A stretch of DNA of 64,000 nt from Methylacidiphilum caldifontis (GTDB lineage: Bacteria; Verrucomicrobiota; Verrucomicrobiia; Methylacidiphilales; CAMAQI01), in NCBI GenBank assembly GCA_945877805.1, contig CAMCSM010000004.1:1582-65581 (forward strand). The letters are read 5' to 3'. The position numbers and the translations under genes are program-made. Shown one piece after another: positions 737 to 64,000 of this stretch; position 1 is the stretch's first letter, and each line of letters begins with the position of its first letter. The notes under the pieces are model-generated. The model was not told the DNA's origin. It saw only the letters and a list, made by a program, of their open reading frames with translations, and ran no database searches.

Positions 737-1450
737 ATGACAATTGAGAGTCGATATCGAGAGATTCAAGGGAGGATTCAGCGCTCTTGCGAGAAAAGTA
801 GGCGAGGAATTGAAGAGGTTTTGTTGATTGGGGTCACGAAGACTCATCCCCCAGAAACAGTAGAGGAGGGGCTTCGTTTAGGTATTTTGCATCTGGGTGA
901 AAACAAGGTTCAAGAGGCTCTTGCTAAAAAAAATGTGGTAGGAGAAAAAGGGATTTGGCATTTGATCGGGCATTTACAGGGGAATAAAGTAAAAAATGCG
1001 GTTCAAATTTTCGATCAGATCGATTCAGTGGATACATTGGCTCTCGCTCAGGAGATATCAAAACGTTGTGAGATGATCGGGAAAAGAATGACTGTTTTAA
1101 TGGAGGTCAACGTTTCTGGGGAGGGGAGTAAATTTGGGGTTAAACCGGAGCAGGCGGCACGATTAGCGGAGGAAATCAACCGATTGCCCGCTCTTGAATT
1201 GAGGGGATTGATGACGATGGCCCCCTTGATGGAGGATTCGACGAAGAGCCGTCCTTATTTTGCACAATTAAGAGAATTGAGGGATCGGATTCAGCAAGAG
1301 ACGGGGCTTCATCTCCCAGAGCTTTCGATGGGGATGAGTCAAGATTTTGAGGTCGCGATTGAAGAGGGGAGCACGATGATTCGTCTCGGAACGGTTTTAT
1401 TTGGAACAAGGCCGAAGCCGACAAGGGAGTTCTTCGAGGATTCGATTTAA
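737..1450 (+). CDS. yggS: YggS-family pyridoxal-phosphate homeostasis protein
   Basis: 237 aa. GVTKTHP, HLIGHLQGNKVK and MGMSQDFEVAIEEGSTMIRLGTVLFG match the YggS/PROSC alanine-racemase-fold family. Confidence 0.85.
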   Translation: MTIESRYREIQGRIQRSCEKSRRGIEEVLLIGVTKTHPPETVEEGLRLGILHLGENKVQEALAKKNVVGEKGIWHLIGHLQGNKVKNAVQIFDQIDSVDTLALAQEISKRCEMIGKRMTVLMEVNVSGEGSKFGVKPEQAARLAEEINRLPALELRGLMTMAPLMEDSTKSRPYFAQLRELRDRIQQETGLHLPELSMGMSQDFEVAIEEGSTMIRLGTVLFGTRPKPTREFFEDSI

Positions 1451-1533
1451 CCGCCAAGTTAAATTCAACCCCGACAAAGAGTACGGGGTAGGAATTCGCC
1501 AAGATTATAAGATTTTATTTAAACCGCTTATTT
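1449..1533. repeat. Intergenic repeat modules: ccgccaagtt word, ccccg/cgggg hairpin, tttaaaccgcttat word
   Basis: aaccgccaagttaaattcaa + ccccgacaaagagtacgggg + aggaattcgccaaga...tttaaaccgcttat. Related copies lie at 37396-37452, 51490-51525 (opposite strand) and 54203-54282. Confidence 0.75.
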
Positions 1534-1622
1534 TCCTTTTCTCCTTTTGGCGCTCTTTGCCTTTACCTTGGCGGTTAATCCCATTTCTTAGATGGTTTGT
1601 CTGGAACAACCGAGGGCTGTGA

Positions 1623-2570
1623 CTAGACCTTCGGAGGGGTCATCGTCAGCCAGCCGCTTTTGAAGTAATCTTCAATCCCTTTTTCTAAGGTATATTGCGG
1701 TTCCGTCTTGAGCTCTTTTTTGGTGGCGCTCAGATCGGCTTCCGTGTGGGGCTGGTAAAAGGGGTAGGGATTATCAAAGTAATCGGGAGTGATTTTTAAT
1801 TTCAAGACCTTATTGAGCGTTTCGATGATATCGTTAAAAGAACGAGGCTTTCCTGATCCGGCGTTGAAGACCCCAGATTTTTTCGCTTTCGTGAAACCGG
1901 CGATGGTGAATTCAACGATATCTTTCACATAAATGAAATCCCGTTTTTGTTCGCCATGCTTAAAGACTCTCGGGCGTTTCCCTGCGAGCATTTGATGGGC
2001 CAGCTGGTAGGTCATGCTCGCTGCCGATTTTTTATGGGTTTCGCGTGGTCCGTAGACATTAAAATAGCGAAGTCCGACAACCTTCTGGCGAGGGTATTCC
2101 CTGAGAAATTGAGCGGCTAGGTTTTCAAGCTGAACCTTAGAGAATCCATAGACATTGGCCGGCTTACGAGGATCGGAGAGACGATTGATTCCAGCCGCGA
2201 TCCCGTAGGTGGCAGCAGAAGAGGCATAAACGAGGGAGCTCTTCTTGCCGGCAATGAATTTGAGGATATTTCGTAGACTCTCGACATTATCGTAGGTCTG
2301 TTTGAACTGATCGTGTTCGGTGGTGTCGGTGATCGAACTTAAATGAAAAATCGCTTCAAAAGTGGTTTTCCCAAAAAGTTGTGAGAGGCAGATCTTTGAA
2401 AGATCATAGGAGAGGAAATCTCCTTTGAATCCTTCGAGATTACGAAAGTGTCCTGAGCGAAAATCATCAATGACGATCAGGTCGTGGGTCGGAAAACGTT
2501 CTTGTAATGTAAGGGCAAGGTTAGAACCAACAAAACCTGCTCCACCAGTGACGAGGATCTTTTTTGACAT
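1623..2570 (-). CDS. hldD: ADP-L-glycero-D-manno-heptose 6-epimerase
   Basis: N-terminal VTGGAGFVGSN Rossmann motif, then ASSAATYG and RYFNVYGPRE.HK...S, as in E. coli HldD/RfaD. 315 aa. Confidence 0.8.
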   Translation of the reverse strand: MSKKILVTGGAGFVGSNLALTLQERFPTHDLIVIDDFRSGHFRNLEGFKGDFLSYDLSKICLSQLFGKTTFEAIFHLSSITDTTEHDQFKQTYDNVESLRNILKFIAGKKSSLVYASSAATYGIAAGINRLSDPRKPANVYGFSKVQLENLAAQFLREYPRQKVVGLRYFNVYGPRETHKKSAASMTYQLAHQMLAGKRPRVFKHGEQKRDFIYVKDIVEFTIAGFTKAKKSGVFNAGSGKPRSFNDIIETLNKVLKLKITPDYFDNPYPFYQPHTEADLSATKKELKTEPQYTLEKGIEDYFKSGWLTMTPPKV

Positions 2571-26069: not shown

Positions 26070-27485
26070 ATGATCGACCTATGTGGAAAACATGATAAAG
26101 ATAATAAGAGAGCAAATGCCAAAGCCCGTTTTCGCGTTTTGGGATTAGGGCGTGGTGGAATTTCAGTTTTAGATCGATTGGTTCTCGGGGGACTCGATCA
26201 TTTGGATATGGTCGCTCTTGATACCGATGAGCAAACTTTATTAACGACCGTCCTTCAACGGCGGCTTTTGTTAGGGGAAAAAATTGCTGGGGGATTAGGT
26301 TGTTGGGGGGATGCGCAGCGGGGATATGAAATTGCTCAAGCAGAACAAGAGTCTTTAAAGCTGATTTTGGATGATTGCGATTACCTTTTAATTTCAGTTA
26401 GCTTTGGCGGTGGGACGGGGGGAGGAATTCTTCCTAAGATCCTCGAAATGGCCCAAGCGGAAAGAGTTCAGACCGTAGTCTTTGGGACCCTGCCTTACGC
26501 TTGCGAAGGAGAGAATCGTGTGGCCCTTTCGCTTGAGCAACTCCACCAGGCCCGAAATTTTGCGGATTGTGTTTTGACCTCATCTCATGAGCGACTGACT
26601 CCTTATTTTACTCGAGAGGCCAATCATCGCAAGGGGTATGAGTGGATGCACCAAATTGAGTCAAAGGTCATTTATAGTATTTTGATGCTCCTTGAGCAGC
26701 CAGGGCTTTTTCCGTTAAGTTTTGCGGACTTGAGAAGCTTATATGGAAGACTTCAAGGAAGTCTGAATAGCGAAAACTGTCTCATCGGTTATGCCGAAGG
26801 AACTCTTGGCGTTGAAAATGAGGCGTTACTCGACGATCTTTTAGAGGGACCTCTTTTAGCTGGAGAAGATGTTTGGCGAGAAATGGATCATGCCCTTCTT
26901 TCGGTGAGCGGAGGAAAAGAGCTCTCGGTTCTTGAAATTCAAGAGATTATGAGTCAAATTCAAAATCGTTTTGGCCGACCGCTTCCGGTTGCGGTCAGTG
27001 CGCATTTTGAAGGCCCTCAAGATGGTAAAATTCGTTTAACGTTGATGTTGGCAAAAACTGTTGAAACCGAAATTCCAGCACTGGTTCAAGAGCGGAAGCC
27101 GTCGATTTCGATTCCAGAAAAACGAGAGGTTGTATCGGCTCGAAGTGAAGAGTTTGAGCCCGTGATCATTCTTGAAATGCCAGAACAATTTGATGAGGCC
27201 CCTCCTTTCGTTCATTCCCCTCAGGTGCCGGTCCAAGCCGAACTCGGTCAATCGATCTCTATCGCAGAGGAATTAACCACTCCCGATTTTGCCTTTGAGA
27301 TGGGGGAAGTGCCAGAGGCTGCTGGAAAGAGTCGAAAGTCGAAGCCGAGAAAGGTCAAGCAAGAGGAGCTTTCCTTAGAGACTCCGAACCGTGGACGATT
27401 TGAGAAGGCCTCCGAAACCTTTTGGAAAGGGGAGAATCTCGATCAACCGACCTTCAAACGACGCTGCTTGTACGTTCGACTCTAA
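26070..27485 (+). CDS. ftsZ: FtsZ, divergent in its GTP-contact loops
   Basis: The ATG at 26070 lies 4 nt after AAGGAG. Tubulin/FtsZ signature GGGTGGG, LDTDEQTL (NTDAQAL-like), LPYACEGENR (KPFxFEG-like), SFADLRSL, and a C-terminal NLDQPTFKRR peptide resembling the FtsA-binding tail. Confidence 0.85.
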   Translation: MIDLCGKHDKDNKRANAKARFRVLGLGRGGISVLDRLVLGGLDHLDMVALDTDEQTLLTTVLQRRLLLGEKIAGGLGCWGDAQRGYEIAQAEQESLKLILDDCDYLLISVSFGGGTGGGILPKILEMAQAERVQTVVFGTLPYACEGENRVALSLEQLHQARNFADCVLTSSHERLTPYFTREANHRKGYEWMHQIESKVIYSILMLLEQPGLFPLSFADLRSLYGRLQGSLNSENCLIGYAEGTLGVENEALLDDLLEGPLLAGEDVWREMDHALLSVSGGKELSVLEIQEIMSQIQNRFGRPLPVAVSAHFEGPQDGKIRLTLMLAKTVETEIPALVQERKPSISIPEKREVVSARSEEFEPVIILEMPEQFDEAPPFVHSPQVPVQAELGQSISIAEELTTPDFAFEMGEVPEAAGKSRKSKPRKVKQEELSLETPNRGRFEKASETFWKGENLDQPTFKRRCLYVRL

Positions 27486-27509
27486 TTCCATTTCTTGGAT
27501 TGGACTAAA

Positions 27510-27657
27510 CCTAGATTCGGCAGTTGAAATGGAGGGGCAGTGGCTCACTGCCTTCCCCGTAGCCCGAGGCACAGGGCCTGTGCCCCTCCAAATAGGACTC
27601 ACCCTTTGGGTGAAGGCTAATGGAGAGGTAAATGTGACTTCAACTGCCGAATTTAGG
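27510..27657. repeat. 148-bp element with 19-bp terminal inverted repeats that carries the 59-nt two-hairpin module M2
   Basis: The TIRs cctagattcggcagttgaa (27510-27528) and ttcaactgccgaatttagg (27639-27657) are complementary at 18/19 positions. M2 lies at 27531-27589. A second, inverted M2 copy is at 56391-56449. Confidence 0.85.
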
Positions 27658-27665
27658 CTAAATCT

Positions 27666-27710
27666 AAAAACAATGAATTTAGCCACAGAGAACGCAAAGA
27701 ACTCAAAAAT
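27666..27710 (+). repeat. Module M1 (aaaaacaRtgaatttagccacagagaacgcaRagaactcaaaaat)
   Basis: Near-identical to 44414-44459 on the same strand and to 2773-2817 on the opposite strand. Confidence 0.85.
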
Positions 27711-27932
27711 TTTGGTTCCTTCCCGTTTGAAAGGGAAAGGGATAATTGCGGAAAAATTGCACGTTCACCTTTTGTGGTTAAATGGATTACCGCTAGGTTA
27801 ATAAGTTACAGAGCGTGTCACGGACTGCACTAGGCACATTCAGTAGGGTAAACTTTTTATTTATATCGCTCGTTTTTATTTAACCGATCGTCTATTTTTA
27901 ATTTTGCTCGATCTGATTAGTTTCTTGTGTTT

Positions 27933-36551: not shown

Positions 36552-37382
36552 ATGAACCCTTGGTTTTCCTCCTTTGATTGTCTTGCTCCTGGAGATCAAA
36601 AATCGAGAGAGTTTGAGGGAGATGGAGTTGCGGTCACCTCGATTGAGTCATCGGATCATCCGTTGTTTGAACGGGCTTTTGCTGCCCTTTGGAGAGAGTT
36701 CGGAGAGAAGGCGGAGATTGAGCAGAGGTCGGTAATTCAGTCACGATTTGAATGGCAGGGGAGGCCGTTGAGTTCTGGGGCTCGCTATTTTTATCAACTT
36801 TTATGGATTGAAAAAGAGGGGGTTCCTTTAGGGGTGCGCGATCACACCGTGATCACTCATTCGGATCATCATCGGGTTATTGTTCATCTTTCTCATAATC
36901 TTCTTTTTCCTGTGTCGCGTCGAACGGGCTTGGCGGGGTGGATGAGGGCTTGGCCGTTGGTGTTTGCGAAGCGTTGTCAAAAGGAGTGGGGGATTGATCT
37001 TCCGATCACGTTGGTGGCAGAGATGGAGCCGATACAAATCGATAGTCCTGAACGATTGCCCCGATTGATCTCTGTTGAAAGAGCTGGTTTTTTGAAGATT
37101 GGTGAGTGGAATTATTTGCAGCCGGATTTTCGAGATCCTGCGGCGATTGATTCCTTAGGAGGGTCCGTTCCGTTGGAGATGAGTCTGGTGATTCGTCGAG
37201 TGGGAGAGGAGGGGATTGAGATGATTTCAGGGGAGGAACTTCACGGGTTAGCGAGGGGTCTCTATCGGATGTATGGGAGGGGTTTTCGAGAGCAGGAGAT
37301 GAGAGGCCCTTGGGAAAGAGAGGGAGCGATTGAGGGCCAGAAGGGTTATCCGCTTGTGAAACCGACTTTCTCCTCGCGCTGA
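36552..37382 (+). CDS. Hypothetical protein, possibly GNAT-like
   Basis: No confident family match. FPVSRRTGLAGWMRAW loosely resembles GNAT motif A (R-x-x-G-x-A). The start is ambiguous between the TTG at 36516 and the ATG at 36552. Confidence 0.45.
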   Translation: MNPWFSSFDCLAPGDQKSREFEGDGVAVTSIESSDHPLFERAFAALWREFGEKAEIEQRSVIQSRFEWQGRPLSSGARYFYQLLWIEKEGVPLGVRDHTVITHSDHHRVIVHLSHNLLFPVSRRTGLAGWMRAWPLVFAKRCQKEWGIDLPITLVAEMEPIQIDSPERLPRLISVERAGFLKIGEWNYLQPDFRDPAAIDSLGGSVPLEMSLVIRRVGEEGIEMISGEELHGLARGLYRMYGRGFREQEMRGPWEREGAIEGQKGYPLVKPTFSSR

Positions 37383-37395
37383 GAAAGAAGGGTTG

Positions 37396-37884
37396 AACCG
37401 CCAAGTTAAAGACAAAGTTCGCCAAGGTTATAAAATTCTATTTAAACCGCTTATCTTTACTCATTAAAAGGAGTCTCACACTAAAACACAAAGGAAAAGG
37501 CATTCAAAACCAGGTTTAACCTAAAAAAAGCAGTTGGAACCACGGATATCACGGATCACACGGATTTCCAATAATTTAGGGAAATTTGCACGTTCACCTT
37601 TTGGGTGAAGAGAAAAACGGAGATTAATTCTCATAAACTCCTCCATCCGTGGTATCTGTGTTATCCGTGGTTAAATGGATTGCCGAATTTAGGTTTAACC
37701 GCGGATGAACACGGATTTAAAACTTGGCGAATTTTGTCTTTAACTTGGCGGTTAAACATCTCTTTCGCCGCGTCGCTGCGCGAGGCACTCCTCTGTATTT
37801 TGAATGCCTTTTCCTTTGTGACTTTGTGCCTTGGTGTGAGACAGGTATTCAATGTCTTTAAGCTGCGTTAACTGCGGATTAATC
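37396..37884. repeat. About 490-bp gap built entirely of repeat modules, in interleaved inverted order A-B-C / C'-A'-B'
   Basis: A at 37396-37429 is complementary to A' at 37721-37756. B at 37473-37509 is complementary to B' at 37797-37842. C at 37538-37565 is complementary to C' at 37645-37672. Module D (gcgcgaggcactcctctg) lies at 37757-37800. Confidence 0.8.
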
Positions 37885-43414: not shown

Positions 43415-44409
43415 GTCGTCGACGAACGAGTCCAATTGATCGAATTCGATCGAATTGGGGCCGTCTCTGGGGAGAGCCGATTGGATGGGTCTGGCTCTCT
43501 GCCTTTTTGCTTCATCTGGTCGCGCTTTTTTGCGTTCAAGATTTTGTGCTATTCAAAGGGATGAGCGCGCACGAGCATGGGCTCTTTATTGTTCAAAGCA
43601 TGCGGTTTCCTACAGTAGAGAAGAGCCCTATCAATTTAAATCCCCCTCGGGAGGTTGAGATTTCAACCGAGATCGTTCCTTCAAATCAAAAAATCAATAC
43701 CACGGCACCGGAGAAGAAAAAGGAGGAGGGTAAAATGGTGGAGGTTCCTCAATGGAACCCGCTCGCAAAGTTATCGGGACCGGCTCCAAATCCAGACTCA
43801 AAAGAGGAGGGAGAGGTGACAACGGGGGTTCCGGGAGTGAAGATTTGGGAGTTGAAGAGTGCGGTTAAAAAAGTCATTTTTTTAATCGATGTTTCAGGGA
43901 CGATGTGGAATGAGATTGAGGGAAAGTGCGGCTTTGAAATCGCTCAAGAGGAGGTGATTCGTTCGATCAAATGGATGCCTCCAGAGATGGTTTTTAATGT
44001 GATCTATTATTCCGATGCCACTTCGATGATGTCACCGACACTTGTTTCGGCGACAGCGGAAAATAAAGAGTTGGCGCGACGCTTTTTAAGGCAGAAGCCG
44101 ATGTTGAGTGGTGCGACCGATTTTTTTAAGGGGATTAAGGCGGCGTTTGAGCAGCGTCCAGAGGCGATTTTTATTTTTACCGACGGGGAGATGGATCTTC
44201 CCCGATGGAAAATTCCAAGTCTTATGGATTCGTTAAAGGAACGAGCGGGGGTCTCAATTCCTGTTTTTGGGGTCGGGTTTTTTTACGAGAAAAATCAGGA
44301 GTCGTTAGATGTTTTACAGAAGATCTGCTTTACAACGGGGGGAGATTTTAAGCTCTATTTTTACTATTCAGCTCCTGTTAAAACGGAGAAAAAACGAAAT
44401 CCACCTTAA
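43411..44409 (+). CDS. Membrane-anchored von Willebrand factor type A domain protein
   Basis: N-terminal TM helix (IGWVWLSAFLLHLVALFCV). C-terminal vWA domain with a MIDAS-like motif, VIFLIDVSGTM...FTDGE. Confidence 0.7.
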   Translation: MSRRRTSPIDRIRSNWGRLWGEPIGWVWLSAFLLHLVALFCVQDFVLFKGMSAHEHGLFIVQSMRFPTVEKSPINLNPPREVEISTEIVPSNQKINTTAPEKKKEEGKMVEVPQWNPLAKLSGPAPNPDSKEEGEVTTGVPGVKIWELKSAVKKVIFLIDVSGTMWNEIEGKCGFEIAQEEVIRSIKWMPPEMVFNVIYYSDATSMMSPTLVSATAENKELARRFLRQKPMLSGATDFFKGIKAAFEQRPEAIFIFTDGEMDLPRWKIPSLMDSLKERAGVSIPVFGVGFFYEKNQESLDVLQKICFTTGGDFKLYFYYSAPVKTEKKRNPP

Positions 44410-44413
44410 ATAA

Positions 44414-44459
44414 AAAAACAGTGAATTTAGCCACAGAGAACGCAGAGAACTCAAAAATG
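44414..44459 (+). repeat. Module M1
   Basis: aaaaacagtgaatttagccacagagaacgcagagaactcaaaaatg. It starts 5 nt after the vWA gene stop and matches 27666-27710. Confidence 0.85.
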
Positions 44460-44530
44460 AAAACGGAGGAGATTCCTCTCTCAAATACGCATAGACGTCA
44501 ACCTAAGGATAACAAACCAAATACAATTTT

Positions 44531-44660
44531 TACCGCAGGGTAAACGGAGGGCAGCAGAGGAAAATTCAATTTACTATTTATTTAAAAACCAACATACCTG
44601 CCTTTTTTCCCAATTAAAAATAATCATAACCTCCGTTGTCCTCCGTTTACCCAGCGGTGA
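44531..44660. repeat. Inverted-arm element (about 30-bp arms, 69-bp AT-rich spacer)
   Basis: taccgcagggtaaacggagggcagcagagg (44531-44560) against cctccgttgtcctccgtttacccagcggtga (44630-44660). They are complementary apart from 4 mismatches and 1 indel. Confidence 0.75.
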
Positions 44661-44676
44661 AACTGTCTTTCTCTGC

Positions 44677-45737: not shown

Positions 45738-45972
45738 ATTAAAAGGAGTCTCACATCAAGACGCTAAAACACAAAGTTCGATTTAAAACTCTCTGCGTCT
45801 CAGCGGCTCCGCGCGAGGCACTCCTCTGTATTTTTTATCATTTTCTTAAGTTTACGCCTATGGGTATTTGCGGGACGGCTCTCCCCTGTTTTGAATGGCT
45901 TTAAATCCGTGTTTATCCGTGGTTAAAAATGCCTTTAAATTCGTGCTCATTCGTGTCCATTGGTGGTTAAAA
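45738..45972. repeat. Run of repeat modules (B in reverse, D, and cacggat/attcgtg words)
   Basis: attaaaaggagtctcaca... (as at 37463-37509), ctctctgcgtctcagcggctccgcgcgaggcactcctctg, and aaatccgtgtttatccgtggttaaaaatgcctttaaattcgtgctcattcgtgtccattggtggttaaaaat. Confidence 0.75.
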
Positions 45973-46048
45973 ATCGTTTTAAATTGTGTTGATCTGCGGT
46001 AATTCACTTTTTCAGGAGATTTGACGAAGGACAAAGGAGCGATAGGGT

Positions 46049-51545: not shown

Positions 51546-51579
51546 AAATACCTTCTCTTGACGAATCTAGTTTTAAATT

Positions 51580-51641
51580 TGCTCTCGGAGTGACTCGAAC
51601 ACTCGACCCACCCCGAAAGAATTCGGGGTTGCTCTTTCCTA
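51580..51641 (-). pseudogene. tRNA-Arg-derived 3' fragment (part of the D arm, an altered anticodon arm, T arm, acceptor 3' strand)
   Basis: 51581-51610 is identical (30/30) to 51914-51943 of the intact tRNA. Similarity resumes at agagcaac on the far side of a replaced anticodon arm (accccgaattctttcggggt, 20 nt instead of 17). There is no 5' acceptor strand or D-stem 5' half. Confidence 0.75.
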
Positions 51642-51943
51642 ATCTTTCTTTTCCAGATAATATTGAATCAACTTGGGATTCTTTTTTGCTTTTAAATATC
51701 GCTCTAAATCTCTCGCTTCTTTAAGGTTTTTACATTCACGAGTAACAACCACAGACAATGGCCGTCCAATCCGTTTACTACTTGGACACGATCCATGTTG
51801 GTGATGGTCGAGACGACGTTGAAAATTATCAGTCGATCCTAAATAGTGTCGCCCTGTTGTCCCTTGAAGTAAATAAACGCAAATCACCTCAATCCTTTTC
51901 TTTTTTAAAATCTGCTCTCGGAGTGACTCGAACACTCGACCCA
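51581..51943 (-). mobile_element. Candidate GIY-YIG cassette bounded by 30-bp direct repeats derived from the tRNA 3' end
   Basis: The direct repeats gctctcggagtgactcgaacactcgaccca at 51581-51610 and 51914-51943 bracket the GIY-YIG ORF. No integrase or transposase is present. Confidence 0.4.
51639..51887 (-). CDS. GIY-YIG nuclease-superfamily small protein
   Basis: (V)ICVYLLQGTTGRHYLGSTDNFQRRLDHHQHG... is the GIY-YIG/URI core pattern. I chose the GTG at 51887 because AAGGA lies 5 nt upstream. The track's longer frame (to 51944) would begin inside the tRNA. Confidence 0.75.
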   Translation of the reverse strand: MICVYLLQGTTGRHYLGSTDNFQRRLDHHQHGSCPSSKRIGRPLSVVVTRECKNLKEARDLERYLKAKKNPKLIQYYLEKKD

Positions 51944-51986
51944 CGGATTAGAAATCCGTTGCTCTATCCAGCTGAGCTACGAGAGC
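51913..51986 (-). tRNA. tRNA-Arg (anticodon UCU)
   Basis: Manual cloverleaf: GCTCTCG-TA-GCTC-AGCTGGATA-GAGC-A-ACGGA-TTTCTAA-TCCGT-GGGTC-GAGTG-TTCGAGT-CACTC-CGAGAGC-A. All four stems are fully paired and CCA is not encoded. Confidence 0.93.
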
Positions 51987-54639: not shown

Positions 54640-54790
54640 CTCGGATTGAGGCTAATTGACCGATGGACTGATTGGCTGTTGGGTTTAAACCGATCAGCCA
54701 AAAGTCACTTTGCGACTGTACAGCCCATTAGTCCATTAGCCTCTCTTCCTCTATCCGTGTTCATTCGTGTCCATCCGTGGTTAATTCGGT
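54640..54790 (+). repeat. Element R1, copy a (MITE-like palindromic core gaggctaat...attagcctc plus ccgtg-word tail)
   Basis: 54640-54748 is 109/109 identical to 56190-56298. The ends are imperfect inverted repeats: gaggctaattgaccgatggactgattggctgt against acagcccattagtccattagcctc. Confidence 0.9.
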
Positions 54791-54850
54791 ATTTTTCCTT
54801 TTTTCAATTGGCAGTTGTCAAAAGAATGTCTAATAACAACCCTTTCGCTT

Positions 54851-56068
54851 ATGGCCTTAATTGTACAAAAATATGGGGGAACCTCTGTTGGGAATCCAGA
54901 GAGGATCAAGAACGTTGCATCACGAGTCGCCGAATGGCGCGCTCGAGGGGATCAAGTCGTCGTCGTTGTTTCGGCGATGTCCGGAGTGACGGATGGATTG
55001 ATCAAATTGGCAAAAGAGGTATCCAGTGAACCGGCCGAACGGGAGATGGATATGCTTCTTTCGACCGGTGAGCAAACGACGATCGCGTTGACCGCCATGG
55101 CCCTGCAACAGATCGGAATACCGGCCGCTTCCCTGACGGGGGCTCAAGCAGGGATCGTGACCGATGGGGTCCACACACGGGCTCGGATCTCCAATATCAC
55201 TCCGAAACGAGTTCATGATCTTTTAAATGCCGGAAATGTCGTGATTGTCGCCGGATTTCAAGGACATACCGCAGAGGGGGCGATTACCACCTTAGGGCGA
55301 GGAGGATCAGATCTCACCGCCATCGCACTTGCGGCCGCGCTCAAGGCCGATCTTTGTCAGATTTATACCGATGTGGATGGCGTTTATACCGCCGATCCTC
55401 GACTTGTCCCCCACGCCTCGAAAATCGAGGAGATCTCGTATGATGAAATGCTGGAGTTAGCCAGTTTAGGGGCGAAGGTCATGCAGGCTCGCTCGGTGGA
55501 ATTTGCGAAGAAATTTAATGTCGTGTTTGAGGTAAGATCGAGTTTTAATAAAAATGCAGGAACGATTGTGAGAGAGGAGACAAAATCTATGGAAGAAGTC
55601 GTCGTACGAGGAGTGAGCTTGGAAAAGAATCAAGCGAAGGTAACGATTAATGGAGTTCCTGATCAACCGGGAGTCGCTGCCAAGATTTTTACTTTAATTG
55701 CCCAAGCCAATTTAAATATCGATATGATCGTTCAAAACGTTTCGATTCACGGAACCACCGATATTACCTTTACCTTAAACAAAGATGATTTAGCGAAGGC
55801 CCGCAAAACACTCGATCCTGTCGTCAAAGAGGTTAAAGCAAAGGAATTGATTGCACAAGAAGGGGTCTCCAAGCTTTCCGTTGTCGGAATTGGAATGCGT
55901 TCCCATAGCGGAGTCGCCTCGACCCTCTTCACCGCCTTAGCGAATGCGAAGATCAATGTTCAGATGATCTCGACCAGCGAAATTAAAATCTCGGTGATCA
56001 TCGACGAGGCCTCCGGCCCAGAGGCAACGAAGATCGTCCACGATGCCTTTCAGCTCGGAAAGAGTTAA
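54851..56068 (+). CDS. lysC: Aspartate kinase
   Basis: MALIVQKYGGTSVG, VVVVSAMSGVTD, RGGSD.TA..LAAAL and two C-terminal ACT domains. I prefer the ATG at 54851 because the track start at 54815 adds 12 atypical residues. Confidence 0.9.
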   Translation: MALIVQKYGGTSVGNPERIKNVASRVAEWRARGDQVVVVVSAMSGVTDGLIKLAKEVSSEPAEREMDMLLSTGEQTTIALTAMALQQIGIPAASLTGAQAGIVTDGVHTRARISNITPKRVHDLLNAGNVVIVAGFQGHTAEGAITTLGRGGSDLTAIALAAALKADLCQIYTDVDGVYTADPRLVPHASKIEEISYDEMLELASLGAKVMQARSVEFAKKFNVVFEVRSSFNKNAGTIVREETKSMEEVVVRGVSLEKNQAKVTINGVPDQPGVAAKIFTLIAQANLNIDMIVQNVSIHGTTDITFTLNKDDLAKARKTLDPVVKEVKAKELIAQEGVSKLSVVGIGMRSHSGVASTLFTALANAKINVQMISTSEIKISVIIDEASGPEATKIVHDAFQLGKS

Positions 56069-56160
56069 CTCAGATTCGTCATGAGAGATCGTTTCTCATG
56101 CAATACATTGAGTTAAACTTAAAACTCCTTAAACCACTTATCTACGCTCATTTTAGGAAG

Positions 56161-56189: not shown

Positions 56190-56325
56190 CTCGGATTGAG
56201 GCTAATTGACCGATGGACTGATTGGCTGTTGGGTTTAAACCGATCAGCCAAAAGTCACTTTGCGACTGTACAGCCCATTAGTCCATTAGCCTCTCTTCTC
56301 CGCCTCTTCCTCTATCCGTGTTTAT
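56190..56325 (+). repeat. Element R1, copy b
   Basis: Identical to copy a over 109 bp, then carries an 11-bp insertion (tccgcctcttc) that the third copy shares with one mismatch (cccgcctcttc). Confidence 0.9.
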
Positions 56326-56365
56326 CCCATTTCTTGCATTGGGAATGGATATTCCTCACAAACGA

Positions 56366-56500
56366 TATCACCAAAATGGTGATAAAAAATGGAGGGGCAC
56401 AGGCTCTGTGCCTCATCGGACGGGGAAGGCAGTGGGCCACTGCCCCTCCAGTTCTAATGACGAATCTGGGTTTATCAGTGTCCATCCGTGGTTCCAACTG
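56366..56500. repeat. Second copy of the M2-bearing element (inverted relative to 27510-27657)
   Basis: M2 at 56391-56449. The flanking hairpin atcacc-aaaa-tggtgat corresponds to tcaccc-aaa-gggtga in copy 1. The flank cgaatctgggttta corresponds to cgaatctaggttta. It ends in atccgtggttccaactgcttttt, the reverse complement of 37525-37547. Confidence 0.8.
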
Positions 56501-56602
56501 CTTTTTCTGTTTTGAACGGGATCGACCTCGAATAGTCGAGTAAAAAGGGGAAATTTTCACTTTTTGACCCCCTTTTACAAAGTTTTGAAGAAAGTTCTCT
56601 AT

Positions 56603-56620
56603 TTGTCATGAAACTGTAAC
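56603..56620 (+). promoter_or_regulatory. Pho-box-like direct repeat
   Basis: TTGTCAT-GAAA-CTGTAAC against the E. coli-type consensus CTGTCAT-AWAW-CTGTCAY. It lies 84 bp upstream of the porin ATG, at the head of the porin-pstSCAB-phoU cluster. Confidence 0.5.
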
Positions 56621-56703
56621 AATCGGCTGCTTAGTTCTTGGTGCTTTCAAAGGGCTTTCTGATGAGAAGGGGATGAAGGCATATAAAAACAACAAGGAGA
56701 AAT

Positions 56704-58086
56704 ATGAAAAAAACATTTAAAAAGATGACCGCGTTGGCGGTAGCTTTTGCTGCGATGACCTTCGCGGCAGTCGCTCAAGATAGCGGGGCGCTCGTTGAAG
56801 CCCTCGTGAAGAAGGGAATTCTCTCGGATCAAGAAGCAGAAGAAATTCGCGCCGATTTGACCAAAGAATTCGGACAAACCCCTGCTGGAAAATTAAATTT
56901 GAACAGCGCGGTCACTCAATTGAAATTGTATGGCGATACTCGTGTTCGTTATACAACGGAAAGTTCCCGTACTAAAAACGGACATGAGCTGTCAACCCAA
57001 AATCGGGAGCAACTTCGTTACCGCGTCCGTTTAGGGGCAGAGTACTCCTTCGTTGATAACTTCAAAGCGGGAGTCGCATTCACAACAGGAACAGCAAATG
57101 ACTCTGGTAATTCCACTTTTGGAAACGGAACAGACGGAGCATTCGGTAAATCAAGTGCAAACGATGCGATCGTTGTTGATCTCGCTTACCTCCAATATGA
57201 CCCAGTCATGTTTGATTCAAGCGTGAAGACATCGCTTTTCGTTGGTCGTCATAAAAAGACCTTTGAACTCGACTGGATCAACTTTGATGGCGATATCAAT
57301 GTTGAAGGAGCTGGCGAAAAAGTCTCTTGGGAGTTGAACAAGAATTTCAACTTTGGATATAACGGAGGTCAGTACCTTTATGAAGATACCACCAATCAAG
57401 GGACGAACAACACCAATACAACTCGTCACGATACTTGGCTTTTGGTTAACCAAGTGGTTGCCGAATACAAGGTCAATAAAGATTTGAGCTTCAAAGTCTC
57501 TCCGATGATGATGGATATGGTGAACCAAACCAGCCCTGATTCTGGTGCTACTGGTGCGAGCACGACAATCGCTGGATATGGAAGCATTCTCTTTGTTCCT
57601 TTGGAAGCAAAGTTCAAACTTTGGAATACACAATTCCGTCCTTACTACATCTACAGTCACAACTTTGAGTCTGAAGAGGCTCTATTAGCAGCGCAATCGC
57701 TTCGCCGAGACAACGTCACTGTTGATCGTAATAACGCCGATCAAAGCGACAGTCACACCTTCGGATTCGAAGCCGGTGAGTTGAAGAAGAAAAAAGATTG
57801 GCAAGTGGGTCTCTATTATATCCACCGCGAAGCTTTTGCTTCTAATAACGACCTCGTCGATTCCGATTGGGCGCTTCAACGTTCGAACATGAAGGGCTAT
57901 GCTGTGAAGGCTGGTTATATGCTCACGGATAACGTTTCATTGAATGCGGCTTATCTGACCGGTGATACGCTTCAAGATCATATCTTCCCGAATAATGTTG
58001 TTGGCGGTGCAGCAAGCAACACAAATCAAATTGCAGATCGAAGCAGAGTTGAAGTATTTCAACTTGACGTGAATTGGAAATTCTAA
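56704..58086 (+). CDS. Outer-membrane porin, probably phosphate-selective (OprO/P-like) by context
   Basis: Signal peptide MKKTFKKMTALAVAFAAMTFAAVAQ, alternating beta-strand-like sequence, and a C-terminal ...LDVNWKF (terminal Phe). It lies directly upstream of pstS. Confidence 0.6.
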   Translation: MKKTFKKMTALAVAFAAMTFAAVAQDSGALVEALVKKGILSDQEAEEIRADLTKEFGQTPAGKLNLNSAVTQLKLYGDTRVRYTTESSRTKNGHELSTQNREQLRYRVRLGAEYSFVDNFKAGVAFTTGTANDSGNSTFGNGTDGAFGKSSANDAIVVDLAYLQYDPVMFDSSVKTSLFVGRHKKTFELDWINFDGDINVEGAGEKVSWELNKNFNFGYNGGQYLYEDTTNQGTNNTNTTRHDTWLLVNQVVAEYKVNKDLSFKVSPMMMDMVNQTSPDSGATGASTTIAGYGSILFVPLEAKFKLWNTQFRPYYIYSHNFESEEALLAAQSLRRDNVTVDRNNADQSDSHTFGFEAGELKKKKDWQVGLYYIHREAFASNNDLVDSDWALQRSNMKGYAVKAGYMLTDNVSLNAAYLTGDTLQDHIFPNNVVGGAASNTNQIADRSRVEVFQLDVNWKF

Positions 58087-58117
58087 TCAACGTTTGATTT
58101 AAAAAATCAATAAAAAA

Positions 58118-58145
58118 CCCCCGGTGAGCGGAAACTCACCGGGGG
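58118..58145. terminator. GC-rich 11-bp hairpin after the porin gene
   Basis: cccccggtgag-cggaaa-ctcaccggggg, flanked by A-runs on both sides. There is no U tract on the plus strand, so its terminator function is uncertain. Confidence 0.5.
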
Positions 58146-58237
58146 TCTAAAAAAACAAATGAATTGCTTTTGAACGAACAAAAACGATTCTGCTGTTTCA
58201 GTAAACAAAAATCAATCAAGGAATTGTTACATTTTTT

Positions 58238-59047
58238 ATGAAAAAACTTTTTACACTCTCATTGGCTGCTTTGATGACCCTTTCGTTCATCCAAGCTGAA
58301 AAATTGGTCATCAAAGGTTCTGACACTCTTGGAGCTAAACTCGTTCCTCAGCTCGCAGAGGCTTTCAAGGCTGCGAACCCTGGAACAACGTTCGAAATCG
58401 CTGCTGAAGGTTCAACCACCGGTATCGCTGCGATCACCGACGGAACTGCTGATATCGGGATGTCCTCCCGCCGTGCAAAGCCGACTGAAATGTCGGCTGC
58501 GACTGCAAAGGGCGTCAGCATGAAGCCGACGATCGTTTGTTATGATGGAATCGGAATTGTGGTCAATGCTGCTAGTCCTCTTAAAGGACTCACAAAGTCA
58601 CAAGTTGAAAAGATCTTCACTGGTGATGTAACGGATTGGAGTGCTGTTGGTGCTCCTGCTGGTGCAATCTCGATCTATACTCGTAATACCTCCTCTGGTA
58701 CTTATTCCGATTTCAAGGAATTAGCGATGAAGAAACGGGATTATGCAGGAAGTTCACAAAAGATGGCCGGTAACGAACAGATCGTTGCTGAAGTCTCCAA
58801 GAACAAAAACGGAATCGGTTATGTTGGCATGGCCTACATCAAAGAGGCAGGAATTAAAGTCCTTCCTGTCGATGGTGCGGTTCCTTCCAAAGCCTCTGTT
58901 TTAGGGAAATCCTATCCTTATGCTCGTCCAACTTTCTTCTACACCAACGGTGATGCCGCTGGTTTGGCTGCTAAGTTCATCGAATTCACGCACTCTGCTC
59001 CTGGGATGAAGATTACGGAGCAAGTCGGATTTGTTCCTGTCAAATAA
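58238..59047 (+). CDS. pstS: Phosphate ABC transporter substrate-binding protein
   Basis: Signal peptide, IKGSDTLG, GSTTGIAAITDGTADIGMSSR and YPYARPTFFY (PstS/PBP-like 2 family). Confidence 0.88.
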   Translation: MKKLFTLSLAALMTLSFIQAEKLVIKGSDTLGAKLVPQLAEAFKAANPGTTFEIAAEGSTTGIAAITDGTADIGMSSRRAKPTEMSAATAKGVSMKPTIVCYDGIGIVVNAASPLKGLTKSQVEKIFTGDVTDWSAVGAPAGAISIYTRNTSSGTYSDFKELAMKKRDYAGSSQKMAGNEQIVAEVSKNKNGIGYVGMAYIKEAGIKVLPVDGAVPSKASVLGKSYPYARPTFFYTNGDAAGLAAKFIEFTHSAPGMKITEQVGFVPVK

Positions 59048-59164
59048 TTTTCATTTTCGGGTGGTTTGTTTGAATTGATGGAGAACTCACTTCTCTTTTG
59101 ATGAGTGCAAGCCGCCTGAGAGAAAATGAAAATGCTTTAGAAGATCGTTATTTCTCCTGTTGTA

Positions 59165-59200
59165 AAAAAACCGGGCCGAGTCCAACCCTCGGCCGGTTTT
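59165..59200. terminator. Bidirectional-type rho-independent terminator after pstS
   Basis: aaaaaaa-ccgggccgag-tccaacc-ctcggccgg-tttt. Confidence 0.7.
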
Positions 59201-59442
59201 AGATCTTAAATAAAGTTCGGAGCAATCTATTAGAGAAGATAAAACAATATCTCTTAGGAAAGCAGGAAATCAGGAAAAGAGTCCCGATAAAAATAGGGAT
59301 ACGAAGACTTGGAAATTAAAATTGTTTTTTTCATGCTTTCCTGCATTCCTTAGAGATTTTGGCGTTTAAGTATTGTTATCTGTAAAAAATGGGGTTACTT
59401 CGGAGGGGGATTCGAGGAGTATAAACTCAAAGAGAAACTATT

Positions 59443-61047
59443 ATGCCGATTGAACAACCTACAGCTAAGAAGATGCCGGTGAATAAGATGCCGATAGCCG
59501 AAGCTTTGCGTACGGTGCAACGGCCTACGTTTTTGGGCATCACCTTTGATGATGCGATGCATTATTTTTTTCGCGGAAATGCAACGGTCTCGATCCTTGT
59601 TTTGTTTTTGATCGTTATCTTTTTATTTAAAGAGGGGGGCGGTTTTTTTAGTCAGAATGTTCAGAATTTGGAGATCTACCGTAAGGCCGGGCTTGAGTAT
59701 GTCGATATTGTTCGAACCCGAGTCGATAATCATCGGACCTTAGGACGTTTTTTAGGGGAACTACGCACGAAACAACTTAATCTTCTCCATGGCGATGAAA
59801 GTGCCCTAGCCGGTTATGATGCGGCCGTTGAGCGTTTTTCAGTAACGATTGATGAGTATCAAGGATTTGTCTCTGAGTATACTGAGGTCGCTACGGGGAT
59901 TAAGGAGAAGTTTAAAATTGGTTTGGACATGGAGGTGGCAAAGCAAAACTTCCAAAGAGAGGGAAAATTTGAGGAATCGGGGAAGATTGTAATCCCTGAA
60001 ATTGATTTTGCTACAGAAACTCAGATTTTTCGGGATTCGGTCCCACAAATCAAAGTTATCGACGAAAAGTTTCATACGGAAGTGAATGCCTCGCTGGAAT
60101 CTTTTCCTGCGATGCCCTCTGTCGAGTTACAGCCGCAACTGGAGAAGTTTAAAGAATTAGTAAAGCTTCATCAAGAGGATGTCCGGACGATGGAGAAGAG
60201 TTTAACGGAGTGGAATTGGCAAAAACCGATTCCTTGGTACGAAACATTCACCTCCTTTATTTTTGGACGGAATTGGTTAACGGCCAGTTTTTGGCAAGAT
60301 TGGTACGGGATCATTCCGTTATTTGTCGGCTCTTTGATTATTGCGATTTTGTCAATCGCGATAGCCGTTCCCTTCGCCATTGGTGCGGCGATCTATGTGA
60401 ATCAAGTCGCCACTCGACATGAACAAAATTTGATCAAGCCGTATATTGAGTTCGTTTCCGCGGTACCTTCGGTTGTTTGGGGTTTCTTTGGGATTGCAGT
60501 GGTTGGTCAGCTGATCCGTACCGTCTCAGAACTTGGTGTCGTCTCTTGGGTGCCTTTTTTTCCGATTGCAGAACGTTTGAATATTGCGACCGCTTCCTGT
60601 CTTTTGGCGATCATGGCGATTCCGACGATCTTTAGTCTTGCAGAGGATGCGATTCAAAATGTGCCAAATGCTTATACGGAGTCCTCCCTGGCTTTAGGAG
60701 CGACAAAATTTCAGACAATCTGGATTATTATGATTCCCTCCGCACTCTCTGGAATTGTTTCTGCGATCATTCTTGGGCTGGGACGAGTGATTGGTGAGAC
60801 GATGGTCGTGTTGCTTTGTTCGGGAGGTCGAATTCAAATTCCTGATTTTTCTAAGGGACTTGGAATTTTCTTCCAACCCGTGCATACGATGACCGGAATT
60901 ATTGCTCAAGAGATGGGGGAAGTGGCTAATGGAGCGATTCACTATCGGGCCTTGTTTATGGTCGGAATTGTCCTCTTTTTTATCTCACTCCTTTTGAACT
61001 ATGCGGCACAACAGGTCGTGAAACGCTATAAAATTTCGATCGGATAA
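59443..61047 (+). CDS. pstC: Phosphate ABC transporter permease PstC (long form with a large periplasmic loop)
   Basis: The C-terminal ~250 aa carry the PstC core (EDAIQNVPNAYTESSLALGATKFQTIWIIMIPSALSGI). The N-terminus has a TM helix and a loop of about 230 aa. Confidence 0.85.
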   Translation: MPIEQPTAKKMPVNKMPIAEALRTVQRPTFLGITFDDAMHYFFRGNATVSILVLFLIVIFLFKEGGGFFSQNVQNLEIYRKAGLEYVDIVRTRVDNHRTLGRFLGELRTKQLNLLHGDESALAGYDAAVERFSVTIDEYQGFVSEYTEVATGIKEKFKIGLDMEVAKQNFQREGKFEESGKIVIPEIDFATETQIFRDSVPQIKVIDEKFHTEVNASLESFPAMPSVELQPQLEKFKELVKLHQEDVRTMEKSLTEWNWQKPIPWYETFTSFIFGRNWLTASFWQDWYGIIPLFVGSLIIAILSIAIAVPFAIGAAIYVNQVATRHEQNLIKPYIEFVSAVPSVVWGFFGIAVVGQLIRTVSELGVVSWVPFFPIAERLNIATASCLLAIMAIPTIFSLAEDAIQNVPNAYTESSLALGATKFQTIWIIMIPSALSGIVSAIILGLGRVIGETMVVLLCSGGRIQIPDFSKGLGIFFQPVHTMTGIIAQEMGEVANGAIHYRALFMVGIVLFFISLLLNYAAQQVVKRYKISIG

Positions 61048-61058
61048 AGGAGTTTTTT

Positions 61059-62090
61059 ATGGAACATGCATTTTCAAATCGACCGACGAAGGCAAAAACG
61101 ACGCAGAATATCGCTTTCTGGATTATGAGATCGATGACCTACACGATTGTGATTCTCGCAACGCTGATTTTTGGGACGATTTTTATAAAAGGGGGGTCGA
61201 CTGTTTTTCAAACTTCATTTCCCTTTGTGAATACCACCTTTCTATTTAGCAAACCGGAAACCTTGCACGTTGTGACGAGTGATGGAAATAAATTGCAGAT
61301 GGGGGACAAAGAATGGCGAGCTTATAGCGAAAAAAATCCAGAGGCTGTCATTGAGGATCATAAGACCTATGTTTATTCAGCAGGCGGTATTTTTCCCTGT
61401 ATTGTCGGAACAGTTCTTCTTGTTTTAGGGTCGATGACGATTGCCTTAACTTTAGGGGTCATGAGTGCCATTTATTTAAGTGAGTACAGCAAACATGGAT
61501 TGTTTATTGAATGGGTTCGAATCTCGATTGCGAACCTTGCAGGGGTTCCTTCGATTGTTTTTGGTCTTTTCGGCTATGGAATCTTTGTGATCTTTTTCGG
61601 GTGGAATGTTTCCCTTTTATCGGGATGGTTTACCTTAGCCTTCATGGTCTTACCGGTGATTATCACCTCGAGTGAAGAGGCGATGCGAGCGGTTCCTAAG
61701 GGGTTTCGCGAAGGCTCCTTAGCTCTTGGGGCGACGAAGTGGCAGACGATCACCGGCAATGTCCTTCCTTATGCTATTCCTGGAATTTTGACCTCCTCTG
61801 TATTAAGTATTTCACGGGTTGCGGGGGAAACGGCACCGATCATGTTTACAGCTGCCTATGTGGTGCGCGATGAGCTCCCTTGGGAGGTGAGTAAGCTTTC
61901 CGATTTCTTTTTACAGGGAGTTCAGGCTCTTCCTTATCATATTTATGTGGTGAGTTCAAAAATTCCTCAGAACGAGTATACGGCTCGGGTTCAATGGGGA
62001 GGGGCTTTCGTTTTTCTAGTGGTCGTGTTAGCGATTGCGATGACCTCTGTCGTGATGCGGTCAAAAATGCGGCAAAAATACCGGTGGTAA
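61059..62090 (+). CDS. pstA: Phosphate ABC transporter permease PstA
   Basis: EEAMRAVPKGFREGSLALGATKWQTITGNVLPYAIPGILT (the EAA loop) and GETAPIMFTA. Confidence 0.88.
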   Translation: MEHAFSNRPTKAKTTQNIAFWIMRSMTYTIVILATLIFGTIFIKGGSTVFQTSFPFVNTTFLFSKPETLHVVTSDGNKLQMGDKEWRAYSEKNPEAVIEDHKTYVYSAGGIFPCIVGTVLLVLGSMTIALTLGVMSAIYLSEYSKHGLFIEWVRISIANLAGVPSIVFGLFGYGIFVIFFGWNVSLLSGWFTLAFMVLPVIITSSEEAMRAVPKGFREGSLALGATKWQTITGNVLPYAIPGILTSSVLSISRVAGETAPIMFTAAYVVRDELPWEVSKLSDFFLQGVQALPYHIYVVSSKIPQNEYTARVQWGGAFVFLVVVLAIAMTSVVMRSKMRQKYRW

Positions 62091-62093
62091 AAA

Positions 62094-62960
62094 ATGAGTA
62101 CAACACTCGAAAAATCTGCTAATCAAAAGAAGAAGGAGGAGGCCATGAGTATCAACTCGTTAATTAACCCCTCGATGGAGTCTATGATGACCGAAACAAA
62201 ACCGAAACCGATCATTGAGATCGATAATGTCGATTTTTACTATGGTGCCACCAAGGCGTTGCATGGCATTACCTTGAATATTGAACCGAAAAAAGTGACC
62301 GCTTTTATCGGGCCCTCGGGTTGCGGTAAATCGACATTGCTTCGTTGTATTAACCGGATGAATGACCTCGTCGATATTGCCCGAGTCGGGGCGGGTCAAT
62401 TTCGGATCAGCGGGGTCGATATTTATCATCCAAGCGTCGATGTGATTGAGCTTCGCAAACGAGTGGGAATGGTTTTTCAGAAGTCGAATCCTTTTCCAAA
62501 ATCGATCTACGAAAACATTGTTTACGGTCTGCGAATTCAAGGGATCAATGATAAAAAACGGCTCGATGAAGTGGTGGAGAAGAGTCTTCGCGGAGCAGCA
62601 CTTTGGGATGAGGTGAAAGATCGGCTTCATGATTCCGCCTTAGGGTTATCGGGAGGTCAGATGCAGCGGATTTGTATCGCTCGGGCGATTGCGGTCGATC
62701 CAGAGATCATTTTGATGGATGAGCCCTGTTCGGCATTGGATCCAATTGCGACCGCGAAAGTCGAGGAGTTGATCCACGAATTGAAAACGAAGTTTACGAT
62801 CGTGATCGTGACTCATAATATGCAACAAGCGGGACGCTGTTCCGATACGACCGCCTTTTTCTATCTTGGAAAGTTGATCGAAATTGGAAATACGGAGAAA
62901 ATCTTTACGAATCCAACGCAACAACAGACCGAGGATTACATCACCGGTCGATTTGGCTAA
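62094..62960 (+). CDS. pstB: Phosphate ABC transporter ATP-binding protein
   Basis: GPSGCGKST Walker [15 protein letters not shown] signature motif, [12 protein letters not shown] Walker B, and the PstB-typical tail [10 protein letters not shown]. Confidence 0.92.
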
Positions 62961-63926: not shown

Positions 63927-64000
63927 CAAATGGACACTGATGAACACGGATAGAGGAAGAGGCGGGGAAGAGAGGCTAATGGACTAATGGGCTGTACAGT
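63927..64000 (-). repeat. Element R1, copy c (inverted, truncated by the window end)
   Basis: The reverse complement reads actgtacagcccattagtccattagcctctcttccccgcctcttcctctatccgtgttcat..., matching copies a and b. It also has an 11-bp insertion like copy b's, differing at one base. Confidence 0.85.

Follow-up and report, generated by a model that had tools for sequence, protein, structure and literature searches.

Two copies of a 59-nt module, in which two 7-bp hairpins with triloops are joined by a 15-nt linker and closed by a 5-bp outer stem, are present in the window, i.e. the 64,000-nucleotide stretch of Methylacidiphilum caldifontis DNA analysed here. The locus raises the question of what kind of element is maintained in this form. 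A sequence-only reading had proposed that its structure is under selection, either as a structured RNA or as a pair of palindromic protein sites, rather than being that of a decaying repeat. We propose with high confidence that the module is a REPIN, i.e. a small mobile DNA of a kind already known from bacteria, and belongs to a REP-RAYT system with a GGAG tag.

The module is a head-to-head heterodimer of two inverted REP units that are separated by a spacer of ~15 nt. In each unit, a GGAG(G) tag precedes a perfect hairpin with a 7-bp stem and a 3-nt loop, and the dimer is termed a heterodimer because the inner stems of its units differ (CAG/CTG versus GTG/CAC). The cores and their units are located as follows.

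27531-27589, minus strand: REPIN core of copy 1 (59 nt), scoring 82.4 bits with covariance model R1, with T at -1 and A at +1.
27568-27589, minus strand: h1-type REP unit of copy 1, GGAGG-GGCACAG-GCC-CTGTGCC (GGAG tag and 7-3-7 hairpin).
27531-27552, plus strand: h2-type REP unit of copy 1, GGAGG-GGCAGTG-GCT-CACTGCC, in inverted orientation to h1.
56391-56449, plus strand: REPIN core of copy 2 (59 nt), scoring 87.8 bits with covariance model R1.
56391-56412, plus strand: h1-type REP unit of copy 2, GGAGG-GGCACAG-GCT-CTGTGCC, identical to the REP 72 nt upstream of the RAYT gene at locus L052 (see below).
56428-56449, minus strand: h2-type REP unit of copy 2, GGAGG-GGCAGTG-GCC-CACTGCC.

When the reverse complement of 27531-27589 is aligned without gaps to 56391-56449, seven differences are found, placed as the sequence-only reading had counted them: one in each triloop, five in the linker and none in the proposed stems. 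The five linker differences occupy contiguous positions, and the copy-1 linker (TCGGGCTACGGGGAA) recurs exactly at L021:754-812 in another genome. They are therefore a mark of a subfamily and not five independent hits, which makes the argument from two copies weaker than it was first stated. The 59-nt alignment holds, but the homology between the copies covers 85 nt (27506-27590 with 56390-56474). The window contains exactly two occurrences of each 7-3-7 palindrome (GGCACAG-nnn-CTGTGCC and GGCAGTG-nnn-CACTGCC), versus ~0.05 expected from dinucleotide shuffles. The genomic setting is also as reported: copy 1 begins 46 nt past the stop codon of an FtsZ-like gene, and copy 2 is located 255 nt upstream of a Porin_5 gene that is followed by pstS and pstC, i.e. 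upstream of the Pho cluster.

The 22-mer GGAGGGGCACAGNNNCTGTGCC was scanned against 185,579 species-representative genomes, a collection that excludes the window's own genome. This resulted in 66 stretches, namely 59 (with 61 matches) in the Verrucomicrobiota MAG JAZKBH01, three in Methylacidiphilum sp. Phi and four unrelated chance matches. Orthologous genes of the window's genome and JAZKBH01 share 75-81% nucleotide identity. The window carries four REP units and JAZKBH01 61 exact 22-nt units, so the module is not a two-copy element. Doublets dominate the family, with 54 full modules versus ~8 singlet or hybrid units and four units truncated by contig ends; the presence of singlets and hybrids is the expected shape of a REP population. 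The flanks are shared as well, with T at -1 in 51 of 54 members and A at +1 in 50 of 54. A metagenome scan with the same 22-mer yielded one true short-form copy (L067) and two unrelated matches, and covariance model R1 retrieved only two further full copies over 486 kb. One of these, L021:754-812, has hairpin 1 replaced by GGCAGAC-GCC-GTCTGCC.

The units are short (20-40 nt), GC-rich palindromes with many extragenic copies, and the four overlaps with open reading frames (ORFs) concern spurious ORFs built from the repeats themselves. The tag at the hairpin foot is an invariant GGAG and not the conserved 5' GTAG (or GTGG) by which classical REPs are recognized. ORFs of 82-136 aa run through the window repeats at 27375-27686 (minus), 27391-27801 (plus), 56196-56543 (plus) and 56312-56560 (minus), of which 27375-27686, 27391-27801 and 56196-56543 encode 103-136 aa. 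These ORFs are almost certainly spurious and should not be called genes; one repeat-spanning ORF is called as a 90-aa gene in an ENA assembly (L078:6708-6980). The REPIN repeats also break short-read assemblies of this lineage: contigs end inside the REPIN core at MAG loci L015, L017, L024, L036, L040, L047 and L063, and the Logan contig of the window's own genome (L079) ends inside the element at window position 27535.

Conservation of the structure was evaluated on an alignment of 53 full copies. With the two-hairpin structure of the sequence-only reading, 99.2% of the stem cells pair; as hairpin 1 and the left tag were prescribed by the scan pattern, the invariance of both in this alignment is partly a collection effect. 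In hairpin 2, two pairs are altered on both sides, in 25 cells (13 rows with U:A changed to A:U; 12 rows with G:C changed to C:G or U:A). As the compensated variants are subfamilies, these cells represent at least three to four independent events and not 25. The observed covariation score was reached by none of 500 shuffles, and slid controls fall to 42-59% paired. Per site, the non-consensus fraction amounts to 0.195 for linker positions, versus 0.023 for the right outer stem and ~0.02 for stem columns outside the compensated pairs, i.e. the linker is ~10 times more variable per site than non-compensated stem columns. The hairpin-2 stem reaches 0.084 per site, almost entirely through variation at the four compensated columns. 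Its fully compensated versions are GTG/CAC, GAC/GTC (the second-commonest h2 variant among REPINs), GAG/CTC and GAT/ATC, next to a long GGCAGCCCCGAC/GTCGGGGCTGCC form. Selection on hairpin structure rather than on sequence is thus upheld at the level of the family.

The proposed two-hairpin fold is not the minimum-energy fold. With RNA parameters it reaches -27.6 kcal/mol versus -36.9 and -38.3 for one long imperfect hairpin, and with DNA parameters -13.9 versus -16.8 and -16.9. Variation within the family nevertheless favours the two local hairpins. The long hairpin was rejected as the conserved structure although it is the thermodynamic optimum: none of its pairs changes on both sides, and 13-14 copies, those with the GAC/GTC variants, break two of them. 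The neighbouring small hairpin, said to be kept by compensating change, is present in both window copies with its loop-closing pair changed from C:G to A:T. It was rejected as a conserved feature of the family, as it reaches at least 5 bp in only five of 20 long-form copies.

A gene for the matching transposase was found in the related MAG JAZKBH01. Locus L052 (JAZKBH010000285) contains a 157-aa ORF (1386..1859, minus strand) that matches the NCBIfam equivalog NF047646 'REP-associated tyrosine transposase' with an E-value of 8.7e-23 and 80.8 bits, a marginal pass at a cut-off of 80. Its similarity to E. coli TnpA_REP (PDB 4ER8; E-value 2.2e-8) covers the HLH of the HUH motif and the YxxxNP tyrosine, with PDHLHLF aligned to PEHMHCI and NYVRDNPVRH to DYIYINPVKH, at ~30% identity over the aligned region. 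A Pfam scan of this protein gave no match, PF01797 being absent at an E-value of 0.01. On the coding strand, the gene is preceded at 72 nt by GGAGGGGCACAGGCTCTGTGCC (GGAGG-GGCACAG-GCT-CTGTGCC) and followed at 17 nt by GGCAGACAGCGTCTGCCCCTCC (GGCAGAC-AGC-GTCTGCC-CCTCC). These REPs (1348-1369 and 1931-1952) have 26-nt arms that are 85% complementary. The RAYT locus thus has the order and orientation of the module, with the transposase gene replacing the 15-nt linker. It is syntenic with window 56600-62845 (porin and pst cluster; 75-81% identity), so the RAYT gene occupies the intergenic region that holds copy 2 in the window. Beside the gene, at L052:1296-1369, a tail-to-tail REP pair with its tags inward was observed (GGCACAGAGCCTGTGCC-CTCC, a 24-nt spacer and GGAGG-GGCAGACGCTGTCTGCC), and the RAYT locus therefore holds three REP units.

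Homologous RAYTs from other metagenomes (P0001, P0004 and P0005; 40-45% identity) are flanked by hairpin dimers with unrelated stems and GGAGGG tags, and a more distant homologue (P0007) by GTAG-tagged hairpins. No RAYT was detected with tblastn in the 64-kb window, nor in the other 485 kb of fetched loci except L052. A search of 5.8 billion proteins, a collection that holds the window's other proteins, yielded no close RAYT homologue that might stem from the window's genome, the best match being 45% identical. The window's lineage may have lost the RAYT gene and hold an orphan REPIN population.

A RAYT gene flanked by inverted REPs, together with gene-less REP doublets across extragenic DNA, defines a REPIN-RAYT system (PMC3116915, PMC2817692). 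Identification of the module as a REPIN follows from the RAYT in the related MAG, which is flanked by the module's own REPs and stands in the place of the linker. The distribution of the copies is the classical REP distribution. Among 41 classifiable copies, 22 are located between convergent genes, 17 between tandem genes and two between divergent genes, and in tandem contexts seven have the same orientation as the neighbouring gene and ten the opposite one. The preference for gene 3' ends and the avoidance of divergent promoter regions are those by which REPs and REPINs with a RAYT are recognized. This 3'-end distribution in either orientation argues against a strand-specific RNA gene and against regulator sites bound at promoters.

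By analogy with the E. coli and Pseudomonas systems, ssDNA recognition, cleavage and actual mobility may be attributed to the module, whose structure is best explained as a ssDNA hairpin recognized by an enzyme of the RAYT family. The RAYT, with its HUH and Y1 motifs, would propagate the family by binding the REP hairpin in single-stranded DNA; the tag at the hairpin foot would guide the enzyme, and the strand would be cut and rejoined. Copies that retain complementarity would remain replication-competent, compensated stem variants would found subfamilies and the spacer would be free to drift. Selection for hairpin recognition would in this way account for stems that stay complementary, a drifting spacer and compensated variants that persist as subfamilies. 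The earlier contrast between structure under selection and a decaying repeat is consequently misplaced, as the module belongs to a repeat family that would be under replicative selection for its hairpins.

The 148-bp unit around copy 1, with its 19-nt terminal inverted repeats (TIRs), is real: the repeats are complementary at 18 of 19 positions and extend to 29 nt at 83% (24 of 29; 27500-27528 with 27639-27667). Copy 2 likewise lies in a TIR-bounded unit of ~150 bp (56324-56474), of which the arms are more degenerate. The parts of this framework in the window are as follows.

27500-27528, plus strand: framework arm of copy 1, type TAAACCTAGATTCGGCAGTTGAA (29 nt at 83%; 19 nt at 18/19).
27639-27667, minus strand: other framework arm of copy 1.
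27590-27638, minus strand: framework interior of copy 1, 49 nt from arm to core, with the small hairpin tcaccc-aaa-gggtga at 27598-27614.
56324-56345, plus strand: degenerate framework arm of copy 2, subtype CCCATTTCTTGCATTGGGAA as in L037.
56450-56474, minus strand: framework arm of copy 2 (AGTTCTAATGACGAATCTGGGTTTA), with one mismatch to arm consensus A.
56346-56390, plus strand: framework interior of copy 2, with the small hairpin tatcacca-aaa-tggtgata at 56365-56383.
56065-56116, no strand assigned: framework-like palindrome without a GC-rich core (TTAACTCAGATTCGTCATGAGA..TTTCTCATGCAATACATTGAGTTAA), of which the terminal (first) TTAA supplies the stop codon of the aspartokinase gene.

For about one third of the cores, the arms (consensus TTAAACCCAGATCTTGCATTAGAA and its complement) bound a long form, with one arm located 44-49 nt from the core and the other 2 nt from it. 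A short form is present in few copies, and about half of the cores are without detectable arms. Arms without a core, i.e. empty frameworks, occur at L012:5531-5610 and at window 56065-56116, and arms also surround other GGAG-tagged cores (L051:2928-3110, L020:4965-5135, L013:5701-5830, L005 and L046). The unit is therefore a separate palindromic framework in which REP dimers sit. In L051:2928-3110, L020:4965-5135 and L013:5701-5830, the cores inside the arms are longer, GC-rich and tagged GGGAGGG...CCCTCCC, from which it follows that several REP families share one framework. The relative also has a second REP family with the same architecture and other stems, GGAGC-GCCGCYG-GCT-CRGCGGC (L030:378-461, L013 left of 4585 and L005:60-90), which is sometimes followed by the same framework arm. 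At both ends of the units, TTAAA or TTTAA is present; these bases could have arisen by target duplication or belong to the inverted repeat. An empty orthologous site was sought through the window's FtsA and porin; only matches from the same genome were found, at 99.7-100% identity (100% for the contigs of ENA assembly ERZ27280245).

These arms invite a different reading, in which the whole ~150-bp unit is a MITE of a DDE insertion sequence, moved through its 19-29 bp TIRs with the two-hairpin module as passive cargo. The near-perfect repeats (18/19, extending to 29 nt), the recurrence of the same arms around roughly a third of the relative's copies, the TTAAA or TTTAA on both sides as a possible target-site duplication, and arms that occur without the core and around other cores would all fit it. 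However, about half of the cores lack detectable arms, and it is the core hairpins, not the arms, that flank the RAYT gene. In about 550 kb, no pair of arms at insertion-sequence spacing (0.6-3 kb) and no transposase gene between arms was found, and the TTAA-containing ends can equally belong to the inverted repeat. We regard a MITE as quite improbable for the unit as a whole, and it may still hold for the framework element alone.

A structured RNA, either a small RNA or a 3'-UTR element that stabilizes or terminates the upstream transcript, would explain the compensated stems and the enrichment of copies just past gene 3' ends. Folding of the 148-nt unit is also strong (z-scores of -7.0 and -4.5), and the REPs of E. 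coli are co-transcribed and able to shield the 3' ends of mRNAs. Yet the predicted RNA fold is the long hairpin that family variants break, the orientation relative to the neighbouring gene is unbiased (seven versus ten), and copy 1 has neither a promoter-like site nor a T-run after its GC hairpins. An intrinsic terminator was rejected on the latter ground, the sole terminator-like match being the small framework hairpin, which occurs at chance frequency. Rfam gave no match to the module at gathering threshold; over the window, only a tRNA was detected in gathering mode, and in E-value mode (E up to 10) the copies gave only noise, with best scores of 13-24 bits versus gathering scores of 39-218. 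The module is thus indeed unassigned in Rfam, as had been expected. A total of 61 REP units in one genome, in either orientation and with their hairpins flanking a RAYT gene, points to a DNA-level replicator, and a discrete structured RNA is not the best reading; we consider it very improbable, with an effect on mRNA possible as a by-product. The other earlier proposal, that the two 7-3-7 palindromes are dsDNA sites for a dimeric regulator or nucleoid protein, draws on their perfect symmetry, fixed 3-nt centres and fixed spacing of ~15 nt, and E. coli BIMEs bind gyrase and IHF. The inner stems, however, change and stay complementary (GTG/CAC, GAC/GTC, GAG/CTC, GAT/ATC), which preserves the hairpin and not a recognition sequence. 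Moreover, divergent genes, the setting of promoters, flank only two of the 41 classifiable copies, and the copy number far exceeds that of a regulon. For a dispersed repeat located mostly between gene 3' ends, with hairpins that flank a RAYT, paired protein sites are scarcely credible.

Identification as a REPIN removes one candidate from the structured RNAs and accounts for the compensated-hairpin pattern by a known mechanism. REPIN biology gains a system from the Verrucomicrobia in which the guide tag differs by one base (GGAG instead of GTAG). The REP dimers nested in a second palindrome, both empty and filled, provide a clear case that can be used to study RAYT target choice and the fate of REPINs after RAYT loss. 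A broader picture can be drawn only tentatively, and we think it possible but rather doubtful: an undescribed REPIN-RAYT clade with a GGAG guide in PVC-type bacteria, with REPINs preferentially centred in a second, independently repeated palindromic framework that would serve as a landing pad common to several GGAG-tagged REP families, and with a window lineage that lost its RAYT and retains two divergent copies as an orphan, decaying population.

Other repeats were observed in the window as well. Intergenic inverted-repeat families are located at 2672-2805, 27659-27710, 44407-44458, 37377-37772, 45905-45985, 54763-54799, 56474-56510 and 44528-44662, and share a grammar of terminal TTTARCC/GGYTAAA with a short word present twice (GCCAAG..GCCAAG, ACGGAT..ACGGAT, GAGAACGCAGAGAAC). 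Two of them, at 27659 and 56474, adjoin the REPIN units. The aspartokinase gene (54815-56068) has a perfect 109-nt direct repeat on either side (54640-54748 and 56190-56298), of which an inverted partial copy is present at the window end (63939-64000; 62 nt, 97% complementary). A 46-nt segment that overlaps the 3' part of a tRNA gene (51913-51986, minus strand) is present at 51566-51611 and 51899-51944, 333 nt apart and with 91% identity, and may be an att-like remnant of integration beside the tRNA.

Several known systems resemble the module. Correia/NEMIS-type MITEs are intergenic units of ~100-155 bp with TIRs of ~25 bp and AT-rich ends, present in many copies and in long and short forms. 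The framework-bounded units share all of these traits, namely unit size, TIRs, intergenic location, AT-rich ends, copy number and long and short forms. They differ in that a DDE partner was looked for without success, a RAYT-type REP doublet forms the conserved core and half of the cores are without TIRs.

The REPIN-RAYT system of Pseudomonas fluorescens SBW25 (Bertels & Rainey 2011, PMC3116915) has the same inverted, hairpin-forming REP doublets with a short spacer. There, too, doublets are more common and better conserved than singlets, the repeats are extragenic and the RAYT is flanked by the same REPs. The present system departs from that of SBW25 in its tag (GGAG instead of GTGG or GTAG) and its verrucomicrobial host. 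Its core, at 59 nt, is short and its 7-bp stems are perfect; a second palindromic framework encloses many of the copies, and no RAYT was found in the 64-kb window of the module's own genome.

The E. coli REP/BIME repeats and their TnpA_REP (PDB 4ER8; Messing et al. 2012, PMC3479197) share with the present system a homologous transposase, a 5' tetranucleotide at the hairpin foot and mosaic arrangements with non-REP motifs. In E. coli, the enzyme requires this tetranucleotide both to bind and to cleave, with A3 and G4 placed so as to read the CT cleavage site, and a change to any tag base abolished cleavage (PMC3479197). The GGAG tag retains A3 and G4, whereas base 2 is G here and T in E. coli. 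Compared with E. coli REPs, the stems are perfect and shorter, and the RAYT protein is ~30% identical over the aligned region.

REPs in the PVC superphylum and the Verrucomicrobia have already been reported. Di Nocera et al. 2013 (PMC3733652) described GTAG/CGTC-tagged REP dimers, including GTAG families of the verrucomicrobium Opitutus terrae, and found the GTAG-15 REP dimers of Anabaena variabilis inside long palindromes. The module agrees with these dimers in being a head-to-head heterodimer with different stems and a conserved spacer length, and in the location of REP dimers within a longer palindrome. It differs from them in its GGAG tag, which is not among the tags described in PMC3733652, and in its host palindrome, which is also found empty or with other REP families.
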